A DNA stretch of 25,023 nt from Dubosiella newyorkensis (GTDB lineage: Bacteria; Bacillota_I; Bacilli_A; Erysipelotrichales; Erysipelotrichaceae): assembly GCF_001945605.1 (NCBI RefSeq), contig NZ_MPKA01000083.1:1-25023 (forward strand). The letters are read 5' to 3'. Position numbers and translations under genes: made by a program. Below the pieces are notes generated by a model. It saw only the letters and a program-made list of their open reading frames with translations. It had not been told where the DNA came from and ran no database searches. Below are positions 5,454 through 24,552 of this stretch, in pieces (positions within the stretch are counted from its first letter, which is position 1; each line of letters opens with the position of its first letter).

Positions 5454-7349
5454 ATGTTAGGGATCCGCCAGCAAGAATTATTTGATCTAATGGATCAAAA
5501 TGAGTTTCGTTCCGCCACGTATTTTTCAAAACAATTGAATGTGAGTCTTAAAACAGTTCGGAATGATATTAAAAAGCTTGATTGCGCTTTGCGTAAGTAT
5601 GGTTCGAAAATCGAATCCAAACCTCATTACGGGTATCGTTTAGTCATCGTGGATCAAGAAGCGTTTAAAAACTTGCTTAGCGAAGTCAATTCGAAAAACA
5701 CATTAGCTGATTATGATCGAAATACGTATTTATTGCGCCTATTGTTGATGAGGGGCGATTTCATCAAGATCGAAGATTTGTGTTCGCAGCTATATGTCTC
5801 GAGGACCAGTATCACGAATTCGATCCGGCAAATCGAAAGCATCTTGGAACAATATTCTTTGTCGTGTATTCGAAAGCCGTCGCAAGGGATCCGGATCGAG
5901 GGGGAAGAGTTCGATATTCGAAGACTGCTTTGCTACATGCTGCTCAAAGACAACTATCTAGAAGGGCTTATACAGCAAGAAACAGAACAGTATTGGCTCG
6001 CGCATACGATCATCGAACTGCTCAACAAATATGATTTGCATTTGACCGAAGTCGCGTTGAATAGTTTTATCAATTATGTTTTCGTAGGTATCAATCGAAT
6101 GTTGAGCGGCAAGTTCGTGAACTTGAATTTAAATGTGGAAAGTTTCAATGCGATCGGGATCAAGGAATCAAGCTTCTCGAACGAGCTGATCGAGACGTTA
6201 GAGAATAAATATAATATTACGTACACCAATGATGAAAAGAATTATATTTTACTGTATTTAGGCGGGAAACAAATGGCGGGCGGTGGCTATTCGATCGAGA
6301 GCGATGATAATTTTATTTTTAATCGAGAGATCGATCAATTATCGTTCGATATGATCGAATTGATCAAAACGGAGTTTCAGATCAATTTTCCAAATAATTT
6401 TGAATTGCGCATGACGTTGAATCGTCATCTTGTTCCGCTCGATATTCGTATGCGCTATGGTCTTCCGCTTACGAATCCAATGATCGAGGAGATCAAGAAA
6501 AATTATTCGCTCGCTTATGATATGGCTATACGCGCCTCAAGCGTGCTCGTCAACCATTATCATCGTTCGCTTTCGGAAGATGAAATTGGATATTTGGCTT
6601 TGATTTTCGCGCTTCAACTCGATAAAGATTCGGAAGAGTTTTTGAAAAAGTCTAACGTGCTCATCGTCTCTAATGTCACGACTTCAGCAATGAATCTATT
6701 CAAGCTCAAATATGAAAAGATATTTTCCAACACGATCAATCATTTATATGTATCCGATCTGATGGGGTTGAGGAATTTTGATTTTTCTCTTGTCGACTAT
6801 GTCTTTACGACACTTCCTTTGACAGTAGAAGTGCCTAAGCCGATCTTTGAGATCAATTCTTTTATGAATGATCATGATATTCAGTCGATCGAAGAAGCTT
6901 TATGGCGTGCTGAGTCGAATGAATTGCGAAATTTCTATACGCCGAAGCGTTTTTTGACGAATATTAGTGGCGACGACAAGGAGAGCGTGCTCAAACAAAT
7001 TTGCACGATCATAGAGGAGCAAGAAGATGTTTCGGATGATTTCTATGATCTTGTGATGCAACGTGAAGAATATCCACATATGATGTACAACAATATGATC
7101 GCTATGCCGCATCCCAACCGTATTTGTTCGGCTTACACGTTTGCGTATATCGCGATCTTGAAAGAGCCGATCATCTGGAACGATGAAATGGTCAAAGTTG
7201 TTTTGTTGTCTTCTCCAGGCAGTCAGGATAGTCGGAATCGTCAGCGTTTTTATGAGATCACCGCGAAATTTGCGCTGAATAAAGAAGCGATCCAAGAGCT
7301 GATCCAAAATCCGACCTTCTCGACTTTCATCGAATTGCTAGGAATTTGA
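5454..7349 (+). CDS. PRD-domain transcriptional activator, LicR/MtlR-type (HTH-PRD-PRD-EIIB-like-EIIA-like)
   Basis: 631 aa with an N-terminal HTH 'FRSATYFSKQLNVSLKTVRNDIKKL' and central PRD-like repeats. The C-terminal EIIA(Mtl/Fru)-like block carries 'MIAMPHPN'. The gene sits directly upstream of the PTS genes. Confidence 0.8.
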   Translation: MLGIRQQELFDLMDQNEFRSATYFSKQLNVSLKTVRNDIKKLDCALRKYGSKIESKPHYGYRLVIVDQEAFKNLLSEVNSKNTLADYDRNTYLLRLLLMRGDFIKIEDLCSQLYVSRTSITNSIRQIESILEQYSLSCIRKPSQGIRIEGEEFDIRRLLCYMLLKDNYLEGLIQQETEQYWLAHTIIELLNKYDLHLTEVALNSFINYVFVGINRMLSGKFVNLNLNVESFNAIGIKESSFSNELIETLENKYNITYTNDEKNYILLYLGGKQMAGGGYSIESDDNFIFNREIDQLSFDMIELIKTEFQINFPNNFELRMTLNRHLVPLDIRMRYGLPLTNPMIEEIKKNYSLAYDMAIRASSVLVNHYHRSLSEDEIGYLALIFALQLDKDSEEFLKKSNVLIVSNVTTSAMNLFKLKYEKIFSNTINHLYVSDLMGLRNFDFSLVDYVFTTLPLTVEVPKPIFEINSFMNDHDIQSIEEALWRAESNELRNFYTPKRFLTNISGDDKESVLKQICTIIEEQEDVSDDFYDLVMQREEYPHMMYNNMIAMPHPNRICSAYTFAYIAILKEPIIWNDEMVKVVLLSSPGSQDSRNRQRFYEITAKFALNKEAIQELIQNPTFSTFIELLGI

Positions 7350-7515
7350 CTCTGCCCTTTCCGTTTGTGGCAATGTGGGTTAACGTGGGATCATGGTAAG
7401 CATTTTGTTCCAAAAATGGGCAAATTTTGTGAACAATGTAGAAATATCGGGAAAAATTCAGTATAATCTCCTTGTTAGCGCTTAATTACCACTTTTATTC
7501 TAGTAAAATATTCTG

Positions 7516-7543
7516 TTGAAGTTTAGTTGAAGAATACTATAAT
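7516..7543 (+). promoter_or_regulatory. putative sigma-A promoter of the PTS operon (TTGAAG-16-TATAAT)
   Basis: -35 at 7516-7521 and -10 at 7538-7543. Confidence 0.45.
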
Positions 7544-7559
7544 TAAAGTGTGAAACGAA

Positions 7560-7573
7560 AGAAAACGTTATCA
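7560..7573 (+). promoter_or_regulatory. cre-like box in the PTS leader
   Basis: AGAAAACGTTATCA matches TGWAANCGNTNWCA except at the first base. It lies just downstream of the predicted -10. Confidence 0.4.
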
Positions 7574-7584
7574 TTTTTATGAAA

Positions 7585-7604
7585 ATTACCACGTTTGTGG
7601 TAAT
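7585..7604. promoter_or_regulatory. perfect inverted repeat ATTACCAC-GTTT-GTGGTAAT
   Basis: 8-bp arms, located immediately upstream of the RBS of the first IIB gene. Half-sites recur at 7363-7374 (GTTTGTGGCAAT) and 7484-7492 (AATTACCAC). Confidence 0.5.
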
Positions 7605-7628
7605 CATAAAATAGAAAGGAGGATATCA

Positions 7629-7937
7629 ATGTTAACAATCAGATTATTCTGTGCTGCTGGCATGTCGACAAGCTTACTTGTAAACAAGATGATCGAAGAA
7701 GCTAAAAAAGAAGGAAAAGAAGTTGACATCGTGGCTTACCCTGTCAACGAACTCGATCGTCGTCTTGCTGGCGTGGATGTCGCTCTTCTTGGACCTCAAG
7801 TTGGTTACTTGAAAAAGAAAGCGCAAAAAACAGCGGCAGATGCCGGAGTACCCCTTGATGTGATTCCAATGGCCGATTATGGACGCTGCAACGGAAAAGC
7901 GGTATTGGAACTCGCTGAGAAACTGGCGAAAAAATAA
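7629..7937 (+). CDS. PTS lactose/cellobiose-family EIIB component (copy 1)
   Basis: 102 aa. 'RLFCAAGMSTSLLV' carries the active-site Cys8. RBS is AAAGGAGG. Confidence 0.9.
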   Translation: MLTIRLFCAAGMSTSLLVNKMIEEAKKEGKEVDIVAYPVNELDRRLAGVDVALLGPQVGYLKKKAQKTAADAGVPLDVIPMADYGRCNGKAVLELAEKLAKK

Positions 7938-7982
7938 GGTTTTAAAACAAAAAAACAGAAAAGGAAAATAGGAGAGAAAAAG

Positions 7983-9272
7983 ATGAGTGAATTTATTAAT
8001 GATAAAGTCATACCTCCAGTGATGAGCTTTATCAACACGAAACCTATGCAGGCGTTGAAAGACGGTTTGTTGTATTCGATGCCTCTGATGATCGTAGGTT
8101 CTGTATTCTTGCTTTTGCAACAGTTTCCAATCGCCGCGGTTGGTGAATTTTTGACCAGTGTTGGTTTGTACGACATCTTCACGACGACGTACGCGAACAC
8201 GTTTAACATTATGTCTTTGATCGCAGCCATGGGTATCGCCTACACCTACGCGAAAAACGAAGGATTCGAAGGTATGCCGGCCGCGGTTATCTCGCTGTCT
8301 GTTTGGTTGATGTCCCAACCGCAGTCGGTTATGTTCAACGAAGAAGCGGTTGGCGGCGTTGTCGATCGTACTTGGCTTGCTGGTCAAGGTATGGTTGGCG
8401 CTTTAGTATTTGGTGTCATCGTAGGTATGATCTATTGCTGGTTCTTGAAAAAAGATATCACGATCAAAATGCCTGCCGGCGTGCCTCAAGGTGTTGCCAA
8501 CGCGTTCACAGCTTTGATCCCTGCGGCAGCCATCATCGTGGGATGGACAGCGATCATTTATATCGTTGATATCACGATGCATACGACAGTCATGCAATGG
8601 GTATACGCAATGATCCAAGCGCCTTTGCAAGGTTTGACAGATAACTTGGGTGGTGTCATCGCTCACCAGTTCCTCGTTACGTTCCTGTGGTGGTTCGGTA
8701 TCCATGGTGCGACGATTGTCGGTGGTGTCATGGGTGGTATCCTGACAGCCAACGTTTCGGACAACCAGGCGATTCTCGACTCCGGTCGCGAACTGACAGT
8801 TGCCAACGGTGGACATATCTTTACATCTCAATTGATCGACCAATTCTGTACAGTTACAGGTTCTGGTTTGACTCTTGGTCTTGTAGTTTACCTTTGCTTC
8901 TTCGCAAAATCTGAACAGCTTCGTTCGATCGGTAAACTCGGTATCGGGCCAGGTCTCTTCAATATCAACGAACCGATCTTATTCGGTACCCCGATCGTAT
9001 TGAACCCAATGCTTGCGGTTCCATTCATCTTGACTCCAGTGCTTTCTGGTGCGTTGACTTACTTATTGATCCAATGGGGAATCTTGCCTATGTTTACAGG
9101 TGTCGTTGTTCCTTGGACAACACCTCCAATTATTTCTGGTCTATTGGTTAATGGCTGGAAGACAATGGTATGGCAGGCAATCGTTATCGTGGGATCGTTC
9201 TTCATATACTTCCCATTCATCAAGATGTATGACAACCAATTGTATAAAGAAGAACAGGAAGCTGCTGAATAA
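7983..9272 (+). CDS. PTS lactose/cellobiose-family EIIC permease
   Basis: 429 aa polytopic membrane protein. N-terminus 'FINTKPMQALKDGLLYSMPLMIVGSVFLLL' and 'NINEPILFG' are typical of cellobiose/chitobiose EIIC. Confidence 0.9.
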   Translation: MSEFINDKVIPPVMSFINTKPMQALKDGLLYSMPLMIVGSVFLLLQQFPIAAVGEFLTSVGLYDIFTTTYANTFNIMSLIAAMGIAYTYAKNEGFEGMPAAVISLSVWLMSQPQSVMFNEEAVGGVVDRTWLAGQGMVGALVFGVIVGMIYCWFLKKDITIKMPAGVPQGVANAFTALIPAAAIIVGWTAIIYIVDITMHTTVMQWVYAMIQAPLQGLTDNLGGVIAHQFLVTFLWWFGIHGATIVGGVMGGILTANVSDNQAILDSGRELTVANGGHIFTSQLIDQFCTVTGSGLTLGLVVYLCFFAKSEQLRSIGKLGIGPGLFNINEPILFGTPIVLNPMLAVPFILTPVLSGALTYLLIQWGILPMFTGVVVPWTTPPIISGLLVNGWKTMVWQAIVIVGSFFIYFPFIKMYDNQLYKEEQEAAE

Positions 9273-9298
9273 ACTAGAAAAGAGGAAATTAGAATTCT

Positions 9299-9628
9299 AT
9301 GGAAGGATTAGAATTAATTTGTTTTCAAATCATTTCTGCATCAGGCGGTGCTAAATCTGCATATATGGCTGCTCTAGAAGCCGCAAAAGAAGGCGACTAT
9401 GAAGAAGCTGAAAAAATGATCAAAGAAGGCGACGAAATGTTGAACCAAGGGCATGCTCCGCATGCTACATTAGTTCAGCAAGAAGCGGCTGGAAATTCTC
9501 CAGAAGTCTCGTTGATCTTGATCCACGCAGAAGACCAAATGATGGGTGCTGAATCTTTTAAAGCGATGGTTGAAGAATTCATCGAAGTCTACAAACAACT
9601 TGACGCTTTGAAAGCAAAAGTAGCTTAA
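9299..9628 (+). CDS. PTS lactose/cellobiose-family EIIA component
   Basis: 109 aa helical protein. 'ISASGGAKS' and 'LIHAEDQMM' (phosphorylatable His) are present. Confidence 0.9.
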   Translation: MEGLELICFQIISASGGAKSAYMAALEAAKEGDYEEAEKMIKEGDEMLNQGHAPHATLVQQEAAGNSPEVSLILIHAEDQMMGAESFKAMVEEFIEVYKQLDALKAKVA

Positions 9629-9638
9629 TACATTCAAT

Positions 9639-9669
9639 GAAGAGATCCGAATCTCGGATCTCTTTTTTA
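9639..9669 (+). terminator. rho-independent terminator after EIIA
   Basis: Stem agagatccga/tcggatctct followed by ttttt. Confidence 0.8.
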
Positions 9670-9779
9670 TGTGGTGGAAGCGGGAAATACAAGCGCACTT
9701 TTTCTTTTTATAATAAACATTCATATTTTTTTAATTTTATATTCTAAAGATACATAAAGGAACCAGAAATACAATTATA

Positions 9780-10343
9780 ATGTTTATTTATGAAAGAAGG
9801 GGGATTGTGCTAGACAAGTTTTATTATGTAGACGCTTTTGTGAACGGAAAGGAAAAGACGCCGCACTATATTCCTAACTTCATTATGACCAGTCGGAGAG
9901 CGCCATTAAATTATCCATTTATATATGGCTGCGATTTCCGTTATGATGGAATCTTTTTGTGGCGGTTGACAAAGCAGGAAGATTCACTTTTGATTCCATA
10001 TTCCGAAATCAAGTGGATCGAACTGCTTGTCGTGCGGCGGTGTTGGGGGACTACGATTCTTACTATGATGATCCCGTGGTTTGACTTTGACCTGGTCATC
10101 CATCGCAAATACGATGAGATCGAAATCGAATTTCCAGCCTTCTATGAATTCCGAGAAGTTGTCGAAGACTTGAATAAAAACGGGTTGTATGTGATAGATC
10201 ACCTAGATCTACTCAAACGTTTTCCAGATGAAAAATCATTCAAAGAAAACTTTTCCGCTTATTTTGAGAAAAACTATCATGAAATCGCGCAGCAGAACGG
10301 TCTTGAAGATCCGCGGATCGGCTTCAAAAAGACACAATGGTGA
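9780..10343 (+). CDS. uncharacterised protein, paralog 1 of a tandem pair (probable true start GTG 9807)
   Basis: The ORF is collinear with the next ORF through conserved blocks. RBS GAAGGGGG precedes GTG 9807, and the alignment with paralog 2 begins there (KFYYVDA vs KYYYARL). Confidence 0.7.
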   Translation: MFIYERRGIVLDKFYYVDAFVNGKEKTPHYIPNFIMTSRRAPLNYPFIYGCDFRYDGIFLWRLTKQEDSLLIPYSEIKWIELLVVRRCWGTTILTMMIPWFDFDLVIHRKYDEIEIEFPAFYEFREVVEDLNKNGLYVIDHLDLLKRFPDEKSFKENFSAYFEKNYHEIAQQNGLEDPRIGFKKTQW

Positions 10344-10363
10344 AAAAGAAGGAAGGGAACGAA

Positions 10364-10930
10364 ATGAGACAAAAATATTACTACGCTCGCCTTATGACCG
10401 AGAAAAGGAAGAAATCCTATGCAAGCAAGACGAAAACAATGTTGAAAAGAGCGGCTGCGATGTCAGGTTTTGCGATCGATCCTTCTATGAGCATGTCGCA
10501 TCCGTTTATCCGCGGATGCGAATTCCGCTATAATGAAATAGAACTATACCGGCTACAAGATCTCAACGATACATTTACCATTCCGTATTCCAAGATCAAA
10601 TGGATGGATTTCTTCGTAGTTGCTAGACGCTGGGCTGGAGGCGGCGTGATGATGGCACTCAATGTCATGTACAATTTCGATCTTGTTATTCATCTAAAAG
10701 ACGATAAGGAAATCGAAGTGGAGTTCCCAGCCGATTATTCATTTAGAACGATTATTGATCAGCTAAGACCGATAAATGTTCCAGTGATCGATCAATTTGA
10801 TGTATTTGCGAATTTCCCAAATGAGCGCGCGTTCAAAAAGGAATTTGTCCCTTATTTTCAGGAACATTATTCCAACTTAGCCATGCAATACGGACTTGAA
10901 GATCCTCGTGTCGCCTTCAATCCAATGTAG
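10364..10930 (+). CDS. uncharacterised protein, paralog 2 of a tandem pair
   Basis: ATG 10364 is preceded by GGAAGGGA. It shares PFIxGCxFRY, IPYSxIKW, FDLVIH, EIExEFPAxYxFR, VID, FPxExxFKxxFxxYF and GLEDPR with paralog 1. Confidence 0.7.
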   Translation: MRQKYYYARLMTEKRKKSYASKTKTMLKRAAAMSGFAIDPSMSMSHPFIRGCEFRYNEIELYRLQDLNDTFTIPYSKIKWMDFFVVARRWAGGGVMMALNVMYNFDLVIHLKDDKEIEVEFPADYSFRTIIDQLRPINVPVIDQFDVFANFPNERAFKKEFVPYFQEHYSNLAMQYGLEDPRVAFNPM

Positions 10931-11033
10931 TTTTTAAGCTTCAATTTCATATTGTTTTTCCAAGATGAATGAGGTAGAATCTCATTAGAAAGCACTTACA
11001 AATATAAGTAATTGCGACATAGGAGGATTTAAA

Positions 11034-11342
11034 ATGTTAACAGTTCGTTTATTCTGTGCTGCTGGAATGTCAACTAGCCTATTAGTAAACAAAATGATCG
11101 AAGAAGCTAAAAAAGAAGGAAAAGAAGTTGATATCGTAGCATACCCAGTGAATGAGTTAGACCGCCGTCTTGATGGGGTTGACGTTGCTCTTTTAGGGCC
11201 ACAAGTTGGATACTTGAAGAAAAAAGCGCAAAAAACAGCCGCCGATGCGGGTGTACCTCTCGACGTGATTCCAATGGCTGATTATGGACGCTGCAACGGA
11301 AAAGCCGTTTTGGAACTCGCTGAAAAACTCGCAAAGAAATAG
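11034..11342 (+). CDS. PTS lactose/cellobiose-family EIIB component (copy 2)
   Basis: 102 aa, differing from copy 1 only at I4V and A47D. RBS is TAGGAGGA. Confidence 0.9.
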   Translation: MLTVRLFCAAGMSTSLLVNKMIEEAKKEGKEVDIVAYPVNELDRRLDGVDVALLGPQVGYLKKKAQKTAADAGVPLDVIPMADYGRCNGKAVLELAEKLAKK

Positions 11343-11387: not shown

Positions 11388-12278
11388 ATGCTAGATCTAG
11401 GAATCGATATTGGCGGAACATTTATTAAATACGCCATTGTAGACGATGAAAATCAAATTGTCCGTAAATGGAAAAAAGAGACGATCAAACACAAGAATAA
11501 AGATCAATTTTATGAGTATTTGTGTTCGGATTTGCCGTTAGAAAACATTCGATATATTGGAGTGAGTGCTCCTGGTGTATTGGCGATGGACTCGACCATT
11601 CTTTCAAAAGCCGCGGAGAATGTTTGTATCATGTATCAAACCAATGTGAGAGATGAAATCCATAAAAGAACACATAAAGCTGTTCATGTCCTCAACGATG
11701 CAAAAAGCGCAGGATTTTGCGAAATGCAGATCGGAAACGGAAAAGGAACAGCATCAAGTGTTTATTTCGTGATTGGAACAGGCATTGGAGGATGCGTTTG
11801 TGACGATAGCCATGTTGTTGAAGGGGTAAACCGTATCGCTGGCGAATTTTCAAACCTTCCGATCGGTTTTAAAGAGGATGGATCGATTCAATTCTTATAT
11901 GAAATCGCTTCGATGAGCGCTTTGATCTCGATTTATAACCGGTATGCCGATCAACCAGTTCAATATGGTACAGAAATCACAGAAAAATATCATGCAGGAG
12001 ATCCTATGGCGATCAAAGCTTTTGATGAATGGTGCCGAAATATTTGCGCCGGACTCTTTCAGATCATCATATTCTATAACCCAGAAGTGATTTGCATAGG
12101 CGGAGGGATCTCGCAAGAAGAGTGGTTTATCGAAAAGCTCAGAAGCATGATCCAAAGCGAAATCAAGCTCCCATTCCAAGGCTTGTTTTCAACGAGGATC
12201 GAATCTTGCCGCTTCAGCAACGACGCTAACCTATTAGGCGCGATCTTATTCGCACGCCAAAAAGAGATGGAAAATTGA
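11388..12278 (+). CDS. ROK-family sugar kinase (beta-glucoside-kinase-like, no N-terminal HTH)
   Basis: 'LGIDIGGTFIKYAIVD' and 'VIGTGIGGCV' are present, plus 'AGEFSN' and 'ICIGGGIS'. I do not see the Cys-rich CxCGxxGCxE zinc motif of classical glucokinases. Confidence 0.8.
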   Translation: MLDLGIDIGGTFIKYAIVDDENQIVRKWKKETIKHKNKDQFYEYLCSDLPLENIRYIGVSAPGVLAMDSTILSKAAENVCIMYQTNVRDEIHKRTHKAVHVLNDAKSAGFCEMQIGNGKGTASSVYFVIGTGIGGCVCDDSHVVEGVNRIAGEFSNLPIGFKEDGSIQFLYEIASMSALISIYNRYADQPVQYGTEITEKYHAGDPMAIKAFDEWCRNICAGLFQIIIFYNPEVICIGGGISQEEWFIEKLRSMIQSEIKLPFQGLFSTRIESCRFSNDANLLGAILFARQKEMEN

Positions 12279-12287
12279 TCCATCTCT

Positions 12288-13352
12288 TTATTTTTCTTGA
12301 ATATCGATGACCACAAATTCACTTGAGCCCATCGTTCTTGCCGGAAATCCCCAACCATTCACGCCCGAAGAAGTGATCGCCGTCAGCTCCCCACGATCTT
12401 GAAGCCCGTATCGCAAATCTACATTCCAATACAGATCCATCAAATAGCCAAACGGATACAATTGACCATTATGTGTGTGACCTGAAATCATCAAATCCAC
12501 TTTGCCGCTATCCATCACCTCTTGCGTTTGGATCGGCTGATGATCGACTAAAATCGTAAACTGACTTTTTGGGACCGACTTTAAAAGCGTTTCTACCGAA
12601 ATCCGATCTTTTCGCTTTAGAGAATAATCGCTTCGACCTGCAATCACCATGCCATGCGATTCTGCGATCTGATCGTTCAATATGTGAATGTTCGCCTTTT
12701 TTAAATTGGATTCGTATTCACTTTGGGTAAATTTTTTATTCCATATTTTTGGCTGCAAATCATGATTGCCATAAATATAGAAAACATCGGCCGTTTTGCT
12801 CAAAGTCTTTAAAGCATGAATGCATTGTTCCATATCTTTTTTGCTTGTTTGTTCATCCGTTATATCGCCACCGATCAAGACGATGTCAGGATCGGTTTGC
12901 GCCATCTTGGAAACAAGCACCTCTAGGGAGCCAATATCCATACCATTCGGATAATGGAGATCCGAAAAAAATAAAACCCGCGTCGGCTTGACTTTCTTTT
13001 CTGTTTCCAGCGAATATTCAATCTCGATCCGCTCTTGAAAATGAAAGGCGCCATACACTGTATAACTGAGTGCGCAAAAGGCACAAAGAAGAAGCATCCA
13101 AAAAGATACGCGCTTCTTTCGAAACCACTGAATTCCCTGAATGAGAAGTGTAAAAACAAAGGTATATAAAACAAAAGGAAAGTACAAAGAATTTTTATAC
13201 ATACCAGGCATGAAAACGATCGCACAAGCCAAAAAGACGACCCAAGGATTCCATTGCGACTTATCGTTTTTTATGATCGTCCACCAGTCCCAGATCAAAA
13301 AGGAAACATAGACACAAATGAGTAATTGAAAAAAAACCATACCTAACATCAC
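12288..13352 (-). CDS. membrane-anchored calcineurin-like metallophosphoesterase
   Basis: N-terminal TM segments are followed by 'FFSDLHYPNG', 'GGDITDE', 'GNHD' and 'GHTHNGQ'. Confidence 0.85.
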   Translation of the reverse strand: MMLGMVFFQLLICVYVSFLIWDWWTIIKNDKSQWNPWVVFLACAIVFMPGMYKNSLYFPFVLYTFVFTLLIQGIQWFRKKRVSFWMLLLCAFCALSYTVYGAFHFQERIEIEYSLETEKKVKPTRVLFFSDLHYPNGMDIGSLEVLVSKMAQTDPDIVLIGGDITDEQTSKKDMEQCIHALKTLSKTADVFYIYGNHDLQPKIWNKKFTQSEYESNLKKANIHILNDQIAESHGMVIAGRSDYSLKRKDRISVETLLKSVPKSQFTILVDHQPIQTQEVMDSGKVDLMISGHTHNGQLYPFGYLMDLYWNVDLRYGLQDRGELTAITSSGVNGWGFPARTMGSSEFVVIDIQEK

Positions 13353-20105: not shown

Positions 20106-22288
<2,183 letters not shown>

Positions 22289-24230: not shown

Positions 24231-24304
24231 TGGAGCAGGTGATGAGAATCGAACTCACGTAGTCAGCTTGGAAGGCTGAAGTTCTACCATTGAACTACAC
24301 CTGC
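24231..24304 (-). tRNA. tRNA-Gly (anticodon TCC)
   Basis: The reverse complement reads GCAGGTGTAGTTCAATGGTAGAAC-T-TCAGC-CTTCCAA-GCTGA...CACCTGCTCCA. The cloverleaf fits and CCA is encoded. Confidence 0.9.
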
Positions 24305-24313
24305 GAATAAAAA

Positions 24314-24389
24314 TGGTGACCCGTGGGCGATTCGAACGCCCGACCCTTTGATTAAAAGTCAAATGCTCTACCAGCTGAGCTAACGGGTC
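24314..24389 (-). tRNA. tRNA-Lys (anticodon TTT)
   Basis: The reverse complement reads GACCCGTTAGCTCAGCTGGTAGAGCATTTGACTTTTAATCAAAGGGTCGGGCGTTCGAATCGCCCACGGGTCACCA. The anticodon loop is CTTTTAA and the discriminator is A. Confidence 0.9.
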
Positions 24390-24392
24390 ACA

Positions 24393-24468
<76 letters not shown>

Positions 24469-24476
24469 ATTAAACA

Positions 24477-24552
24477 TGGTGGAGGCTAACGGGCTCGAAC
24501 CGCTGACCCTCTGCTTGTAAGGCAGACGCTCTCCCAACTGAGCTAAGCCTCC
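24477..24552 (-). tRNA. tRNA-Val (anticodon TAC)
   Basis: The reverse complement reads GGAGGCTTAGCTCAGTTGGGAGAGCGTCTGCCTTACAAGCAGA...AGCCTCCACCA. Confidence 0.9.

Follow-up and report, generated by a model that had tools for sequence, protein, structure and literature searches.

A rare, previously unannotated domain family in a phosphotransferase locus of Dubosiella newyorkensis: a possible paired sensor/adaptor domain of regulatory circuits

The stretch of DNA analysed here, referred to as the window, comprises 25,023 nucleotides of contig NZ_MPKA01000083.1 of Dubosiella newyorkensis (assembly GCF_001945605.1). Inside a locus of the sugar phosphotransferase system (PTS) it carries two adjacent forward-strand genes, C (9807-10343, 178 aa, acidic with an isoelectric point (pI) of 5.4) and D (10364-10930, 188 aa), whose products are predicted to be cytoplasmic and share one domain. 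This domain defines a previously unannotated small family that is absent from Pfam, NCBIfam and the PDB. Elsewhere it is fused to three unrelated classes of DNA-binding domain, and it occurs repeatedly in pairs or arrays. The reading favoured here, with a probability of about 0.4, is that C and D are copies of a sensor/adaptor domain that works as a dimeric pair in regulatory circuits, present in the window in stand-alone form. The reality of the two genes, their paralogy, the limits of the family, its fusions and its genomic contexts are established observations; from these we infer a fold class, dimerisation, a regulatory role and the degree of connection to the PTS. At present, C and D thus represent a well-delimited domain of unassigned role accompanied by a hypothesis, not a new mechanism.

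Limits of the domain family

Whereas every neighbouring gene gives strong matches to known families, C and D match no model of EIIA, EIIB, EIIC, HPr or the PTS regulation domain (PRD) in Pfam and NCBIfam, and the searches of Pfam, NCBIfam and PHROGs as a whole were empty for both proteins. Sequence-profile searches of the PDB with alignments of 10 and of 31 sequences returned no match, nor was any similarity to a glycoside hydrolase (GH1, GH4) or to another enzyme family detected in Pfam, NCBIfam or the PDB. The only hit was a weak match of D to LmuB in PADLOC (E 0.0023), partial and isolated, which is probably due to chance. A preliminary description of the pair, prepared by reading the sequence, had assigned the two proteins to no recognised family, and these searches bear it out. 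According to Pfam and NCBIfam, neither protein contains a helix-turn-helix (HTH) domain, so that the window pair consists of stand-alone copies of the shared domain.

The family is also remarkably small. An exhaustive profile search of 1.84 billion representatives recovered only 38 relatives at E<1e-3, and a word-indexed search recovered close relatives only. Every member that could be identified belongs to Dubosiella or to its close relatives among the Erysipelotrichaceae, whereas the others are encoded on unassigned metagenome contigs; cluster names point to D. newyorkensis for the window, and every named copy is a "hypothetical protein" at NCBI. When 42 family members were scanned one by one against Pfam at E<=10, the matches outside N-terminal HTH domains were restricted to weak ones, two to PH_SPT16 (E 0.029) and two to Rtt106-like (E 0.59), and none of the 42 matched a bPH or GRAM model even at this threshold. 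The Imm families of Pfam gave no match to the pair, and no toxin-like neighbour was found in the window or in the related loci. With the C/D-family queries tried, tblastn retrieved no family match from 72,556 plasmids and 50,697 phages, and no relatives were retrieved from IMG/VR. Rfam revealed no RNA element in or near the pair. The domain measures about 165 aa, and two features are specific to the family: a triad of residues, E108, D131 and R170, which is nearly invariant family-wide, and a conserved C-terminal tail motif L-[DE]-x-P-R, which takes the form GLEDPR in C.

Fusions to DNA-binding domains and genomic contexts

The architecture of the relatives provides the main evidence on function. 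In P0026 and P0029 the domain lies C-terminal to an XRE-type HTH (HTH_3), P0026 carrying in addition a C-terminal transmembrane helix. In P0047, P0048 and P0037 it follows a MerR domain, P0037 containing two tandem copies, and in P0041 it follows an HxlR domain. A domain that is joined in this way to three unrelated DNA-binding classes bears the hallmark of the part of one-component regulators that receives a signal or mediates oligomerisation.

The surroundings of the family members are diverse. A four-gene tandem array follows a LytTR response regulator in locus L005, with rSAM-SPASM and TraB/PrgY genes nearby, and the member in L017 lies near a DUF1430 and ABC ATPase pair, a 41-aa open reading frame (ORF) and a LytTR system. 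In L029-L031 (for example L030, 4987-8497) a stand-alone copy immediately precedes a copy that is fused to an XRE HTH and carries a C-terminal transmembrane helix; after these come genes for a LytTR response regulator, a GHKL (HATPase_c_5) kinase, an ABC exporter and VanZ, while three DUF6442 paralogs together with a DUF6487 gene lie upstream. LytTR systems adjoin family members in three independent lineages. Lipoprotein and ABC genes are the neighbours in L020-L027, and FtsX and ABC genes in L008. P0031 resides on a small integrative element (L033, 1961-8625) with two tyrosine integrases, a rolling-circle Rep (Viral_Rep), DUF6487 and DUF4258. In none of about nine distant contexts does a family member lie in a PTS operon; the nearest PTS gene (L032) is separated from it by four unrelated genes and about 3.3 kb.

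Several of these arrangements involve more than one copy. Arrays contain two genes in the window and four each in Dubosiella muris, in Erysipelotrichaceae strain OPF54 and in L005. Together with the tandem copies of P0037, the stand-alone copy beside an HTH-fused one and the retention of both C and D, these arrays suggest that the working unit is a pair of domains. The preliminary description had offered, as one of two options, an independent two-gene system. Independence from the PTS does fit the data better, but what the relatives reveal is a domain family and not a fixed two-gene system; the stricter notion of a tandem pair fails already in the sister species, where four paralogs are present, one of them on the opposite strand.

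C and D as genes and as paralogs

Each of the two genes offers two possible starts on the forward strand, ATG 9780 or GTG 9807 for C and ATG 10337 or ATG 10364 for D. Since homologues measure 178-179 aa and 188 aa and the NCBI gene calls are of 178 aa, the starts were set at GTG 9807 and ATG 10364, the same ones that had been put forward as likeliest before these comparisons. Good matches to a ribosome-binding site precede both of them, AGAAGGGGG at 9795-9803 for C and GGAAGGGAAC at 10351-10360 for D, and both sites and starts are conserved among homologues. Comparison of orthologues from four Dubosiella-group genomes or metagenome-assembled genomes demonstrates purifying selection on the pair, the between-species ratio of nonsynonymous to synonymous substitution rates (dN/dS) being about 0.07-0.10 with dS saturating. 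For C, orthologues are 65-98% identical with dN/dS 0.08-0.25, and for D they are 71-100% identical with dN/dS about 0.07-0.10. The rate of evolution of the pair (about 70% identity) is similar to that of the neighbouring LicR-like activator and ROK protein. C and D are, accordingly, real genes under purifying selection, and a dN/dS of about 0.1 rules out that they are spurious ORFs. By contrast, the overlapping +1-frame ORF at 10228-10533 appears only in a frameshifted database entry (P0011) and was rejected as spurious.

The base composition of the pair is native. There are 16 GATC sites in 9780-10930, exactly as first counted, giving 13.0 and 15.9 per kb in the two genes versus 13.9 per kb (349 sites) in the whole window, and the GC content is 41% versus 42%. 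A recent import was rejected on the grounds of native composition and conserved orthologues, in line with the earlier view, drawn from the GATC density, that the pair does not look imported. As a separate observation, GATC is strongly enriched across the window, at 1.47 times the second-order and 3.8 times the mononucleotide expectation, while other palindromes of 4 bp occur about as often as expected or less often. No transmembrane segment is predicted in C or D, the maximum 19-residue Kyte-Doolittle mean being 1.25 for both; this agrees with the earlier statement that neither has a full-length transmembrane helix, and a reading of the two as membrane proteins was rejected.

C and D are paralogs whose similarity lies far above chance. 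BLASTP aligns them with E 7e-46 and 38% identity over 193 columns, rising to 46% across a 142-residue core, and all the collinear blocks listed in the preliminary description are found in this alignment. That description had also regarded the N-terminal ~45 residues as unrelated, which holds only in part. A motif common to all paralogs, M-x-x-[KRN]-[FY]-Y-Y-x-x-[LAV], is present at the N-terminus, where it is predicted to form a strand (beta-0, residues 4-12), and divergence in the N-terminus is confined to residues ~13-45, which in D constitute a conserved K/R-rich insertion (11 K+R, pI 10.4).

Predicted fold

An AlphaFold2 monomer model built on the 31-sequence alignment reached a predicted local distance difference test score (pLDDT) of 85 and a predicted TM-score (pTM) of 0.82, superseding a mediocre earlier model from 10 close sequences (pLDDT 70). 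In the model, strand beta-0 (4-12) is followed by a long, poorly defined loop, six strands (39-110) and a helix (115-124), after which a C-terminal extension made of a short strand, a short helix and a long helix (142-164) leads to the GL[ED]DPR tail. The pleckstrin homology (PH)-like fold is a seven-stranded beta-sandwich of two near-perpendicular sheets with a C-terminal amphipathic helix as cap (PMC2817789). The best Foldseek matches of the model are the tandem-PH modules of Spt16M and Pob3M (probability 0.9-1.0, E 0.011-0.17), aligned with a TM-score of about 0.32 over 84-91 columns, and searches against the PDB and BFVD yielded nothing at E<1e-3. The predicted C/D domain is probably a PH-like beta-sandwich capped by a helix. 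A PH/GRAM-like fold had been guessed at the outset, and the guess gains weak support from two sides, the order of strands and helix in the model with its Foldseek matches to Spt16M/Pob3M, and the PH_SPT16 match (E 0.029) in two members.

Among proteins of this fold, several offer partial parallels. The bacterial PHb1/PHb2 proteins (Pfam PF08000) have an N-terminal beta-0 strand on a long loop and a helical C-terminal extension (PMC2817789), and the C/D model resembles them in its helix-capped beta-sandwich, its beta-0 joined by a long loop and its helical extension. Nevertheless, the 42 members lack any significant profile match to the Pfam PH/bPH families, and the L-[DE]-x-P-R motif and the E/D/R triad set the C/D family apart from bacterial PH-like domains. 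Like YdbS/YdbT and DdE/DdF (PMC8657885), C and D are an adjacent paralogous gene pair, and some of their relatives lie near ABC transporters and peptide loci; unlike them, C and D have no predicted transmembrane helices, whereas in DdE/DdF and YdbS/YdbT such helices flank the PH domain or domains (PMC8657885). The best, though weak, structural and Pfam resemblance is to Spt16M, Pob3M and Rtt106. These function as double-PH units and in this respect recall the paired or tandem copies of the C/D family, but they are eukaryotic histone-binding proteins, and a TM-score of about 0.32 with E>0.01 is no evidence of homology or shared function.

A paired sensor or adaptor domain in regulatory circuits

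At the functional level, two copies of the domain would come together as a homo- or heterodimer, a pseudo double-PH unit, and the domain would serve as the signal-receiving or partner-binding part of transcription-control circuits. Its placement after the HTH in the XRE, MerR and HxlR relatives resembles that of the C-terminal sensor domains of XRE and MerR one-component regulators. Stand-alone copies located near such regulators or near LytTR two-component systems could heterodimerise with the same domain in those regulators, in the way that SinI acts on SinR. In that system, sinI lies upstream of sinR, and SinI antagonises SinR by hetero-association of the C-terminal domain that they share. 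The stand-alone copy directly upstream of an HTH-fused copy in L029-L031 recalls this arrangement. Hetero-oligomeric interactions have been described among SinR, SinI and SlrA (PMC3917956). The C/D family differs from these proteins in having no sequence or fold relation to the helical hooks of SinR/SinI, and in the window both partners are devoid of an HTH. C and D themselves would most likely bind a ligand or a protein partner and modulate regulation, and they probably do not catalyse a step of sugar catabolism.

Several points weigh against this proposal. The window proteins have no DNA-binding domain, and an HTH-fused member was not seen in the window. The relatives occur in differing settings (ABC transporters, lipoproteins, an integrative element, lanthipeptide genes), and this diversity may leave room for roles in peptide or bacteriocin handling or as mobile cargo. 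In addition, the position of the array upstream of EIIB' and the ROK gene in four out of four Dubosiella-group loci could reflect a PTS-specific job, and the evidence that points to a regulatory function and to a C-D heterodimer is indirect. Overall, a general regulatory domain is better supported than a PTS-specific module. The importance of the family resides in its rarity (38 clusters), in its independent recruitment by three transcription-factor classes and in its repeated occurrence beside LytTR systems. If it is indeed a sensor/adaptor, it would constitute a new input domain for bacterial one-component signalling and provide a handle on regulation in Dubosiella, an often-studied mouse-gut genus.

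The PTS locus around the pair

The pair is preceded by genes for a PRD/EIIA2-containing HTH activator (LicR/MtlR-like) and for EIIB, EIIC and EIIA of a lactose/cellobiose-family PTS (5454-9628, + strand). The EIIB-EIIC-EIIA unit is closed by an intrinsic terminator after EIIA (9639-9665, + strand; 12-bp stem, 3-nt loop, T-run), whose hairpin is kept in D. muris (L004). Because this terminator ends EIIB-EIIC-EIIA, C and D belong to a separate unit. The leader of gene C (9714-9806, + strand) contains candidate promoters, a conserved block and the ribosome-binding site already mentioned. A consensus scan identified two weak promoter candidates of putative activity, TAAACA-18-TATATT (9714-9743) and CATAAA (9753-9758), and the 15-nt block CAGAAATACAATTAT at 9764-9778 is also present in the spacer between paralogs B and C of OPF54 (L003). 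A search for an operator common to the EIIB promoter region and the C leader found only one shared 9-mer, which is unconvincing.

Downstream of D lies a second lactose/cellobiose-family EIIB, EIIB' (11034-11342, + strand, PF02302), followed by a ROK-family sugar kinase gene (11388-12278) with a closing terminator (12261-12289; whole unit 11388-12289, + strand). The pair had been described as lying behind the EIIA terminator and ahead of a second EIIB and a ROK gene, and the terminator and gene assignments agree with this. No HTH domain was detected in the ROK protein, a CxCGxxGC zinc motif was not seen when its translation was read by eye, with no formal scan, and its scores are far below the cut-offs of the glucokinase and BglK models. 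A putative promoter of the EIIB'-ROK unit, TTGTTT-17-TAGAAT (10952-10980), and a cre-like site, AGAAAGCACTTACAA, at 10987-11001 (together 10952-11001, + strand) are conserved in D. muris (L004) and OPF54 (L003). These elements suggest that EIIB'-ROK is under CcpA-type catabolite control, apart from the LicR-controlled EIIBCA genes. Strong terminators follow EIIA and ROK, and none is found between them, including between D and EIIB'; transcription of C and D therefore probably reads through to EIIB'-ROK, which can also be expressed independently. EIIB' shares 100 of 102 amino acids with EIIB (7629-7937), while the DNA is only 85% identical (proportion of synonymous differences, pS, 0.60; dN/dS about 0.02). 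It is, therefore, an old duplicate kept almost invariant in protein. The twin EIIBs may both be needed for the same EIIC/EIIA, or the second copy may be regulatory. No glycoside hydrolase gene was found within 10 kb on either side of the pair (Pfam list, 99-100% identical locus L009).

In the four loci of the Dubosiella group, the array always adjoins EIIB', which in every case lies directly downstream. In D. muris and OPF54 the interval from EIIA to EIIB' contains four paralogs (A+, B-, C+, D+); a stop codon interrupts paralog A of OPF54. This strain also has about 7.5 kb of transposase genes from insertion sequence (IS) elements, namely IS66, IS21-like (rve + AAA_22) and IS4, inserted between EIIA and the array (L003, 1446-8497). 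In GCA_948759365.1 two LanC-like fragments lie directly upstream of the array (L013, 152-1707), and the product of a 64-aa ORF on the reverse strand (1513-1707) looks like a lanthipeptide precursor: its leader is of the FNLD type, the box found in class I lantibiotic leaders, and its C-terminus is rich in Ser, Thr and Cys. The second paralog of this genome (L013, 2804-3340) is a chimera with a C-like N-terminus and a D-like C-terminus, which implies recombination or deletion between tandem paralogs. In the same genome, the ROK gene is apparently frameshifted. In a neighbour-joining tree the C/D duplication is older than the split of the Dubosiella species, and both C and D have been retained since; A-D as a whole represent a lineage-specific expansion. 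What is stable is the link of the array with EIIB'-ROK, the junction with EIIBCA being a variable site. A fifth D. muris copy is found at a non-PTS locus, beside a signal peptidase gene (L014).

Alternative explanations

The setting of the pair, with its LicR-like activator, EIIB, EIIC, EIIA, second EIIB and ROK, is like that of canonical lactose/cellobiose-family PTS operons, and the preliminary description had accordingly considered a PTS accessory or regulatory pair. Such a pair would bind EIIB', the LicR-like PRD activator or ROK, or would sense a sugar-phosphate, and thereby tune the PTS, and it would represent a new kind of PTS accessory factor. The array lies between EIIBCA and EIIB'-ROK in D. 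newyorkensis, D. muris and OPF54 and upstream of EIIB'-ROK in GCA_948759365.1, the stretch from D to EIIB' is free of a terminator, the 98% protein identity of the old EIIB' duplicate suggests a special role of the EIIB'-ROK unit, and C/D evolve at a rate resembling that of LicR and ROK. However, the four genomes are so closely related (EIIC 91-98% identical) that their synteny is weak evidence, and in two of them IS elements or LanC/LanA-like genes part the array from EIIBCA, while EIIB'-ROK has its own conserved predicted promoter and cre-like site. Unlike the components of canonical PTS operons, C and D find no counterpart among the PTS, PRD, HPr and glycosidase families, and their relatives are not linked to the PTS, occurring singly or in arrays beside LytTR and ABC genes, on an integrative element, in HTH fusions and as the fifth D. 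muris copy. Single homologues in unrelated surroundings are what the preliminary description had itself named as counting against its reading. The family-invariant residues are also present in members lacking a PTS link. Weighed together, these data make a PTS-dedicated pair unlikely. A more elaborate version, in which C and D form a heterodimeric double-PH-like sensor wired to the PTS that reads EIIB' or sugar-phosphate and signals to the PRD activator or ROK, or else docks on the cytoplasmic face of EIIC and protects it as cytosolic immunity proteins shield the mannose-family PTS (Man-PTS) from bacteriocins, is distinctly improbable; if true, it would reveal a new class of PTS-associated regulator or protector and explain what is done by a domain that recurs in XRE, MerR and HxlR regulators and in LytTR-linked loci. 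The initial remark that the pair occupies the slot of a 6-phospho-beta-glucosidase was positional only, nothing in C or D being suggestive of catalysis. A novel enzyme supplying the missing phospho-glycosidase step would fit the failure to detect a glycoside hydrolase in 10 kb on either side and the two family-invariant carboxylates (E108, D131), but the domain is small and probably PH-like, resembles neither GH1 nor GH4 nor any other enzyme family, and occurs as part of HTH regulators and in non-sugar contexts. This explanation is highly improbable and was rejected for its absent catalytic-family similarity and for the HTH fusions.

The peptide-related neighbourhoods raise the question of whether C and D handle peptides or bacteriocins, as a cytoplasmic immunity factor, as an export helper of the DdE/DdF kind or as a guard of a PTS permease that acts as a bacteriocin receptor, the part played by the Man-PTS for class IIa bacteriocins. 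DUF1430-type permeases are associated with bacteriocin immunity (Pfam lists them as of unknown function), and a DUF1430 and ABC ATPase pair, the 41-aa ORF and LytTR stand beside members in L017; the rSAM-SPASM, TraB/PrgY and LytTR genes near L005, the ABC exporter, VanZ and LytTR genes near L030, the LanC and lanthipeptide-precursor-like genes of L013 and the variable copy number of the arrays point in the same direction. To our knowledge, however, no lactose/cellobiose-family PTS serves as a bacteriocin receptor, the examples found in the literature all being Man-PTS. Precedents do exist in the need for paired PH-domain proteins in enterocin DD14 export (PMC8657885) and in the Man-PTS, a known bacteriocin receptor (PMC6202411). 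Yet C and D are devoid of the predicted transmembrane helices of DdE/DdF/YdbS/YdbT and of a Pfam bPH match, HTH fusions are unexpected for immunity proteins, the low dN/dS gives no sign of an arms race, and a bacteriocin gene was not found in the window or within 10 kb on either side in L009. Moreover, lanthipeptide and IS neighbours may merely mark an insertion hotspot, and a role in peptide or bacteriocin handling is, on balance, quite unlikely. A further alternative is that the genes are cargo of mobile or defence-type islands, be it toxin-antitoxin-like, an anti-repressor or a defence accessory, that came to rest in a permissive intergenic site and is unrelated to its neighbours. P0031 travels on a small integrative element, the EIIA/array junction gathers IS elements in OPF54, copies have been lost, split or made chimeric among relatives, and D has its weak LmuB match (E 0.0023). 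Against this stand the native composition, the old C/D duplication with orthologues kept across species, the searches of plasmids, phages and IMG/VR, empty with the queries tried, the absence of a toxin-like partner and the marginal, partial nature of the LmuB match, so that a cargo origin appears very unlikely.

Other features of the window

Outside the PTS locus, the window contains a T-box leader (20111-20317) upstream of a 656-aa ORF (20318-22288), a cluster of four tRNA genes (24234-24552, - strand) and one further tRNA gene (994-1065). On the reverse strand, 1153-2375 encodes a LexA-like repressor of 237 aa with XRE-HTH and peptidase S24 domains, and after it a 140-aa protein that matches nothing in NCBIfam, an arrangement with a prophage- or SOS-like look.

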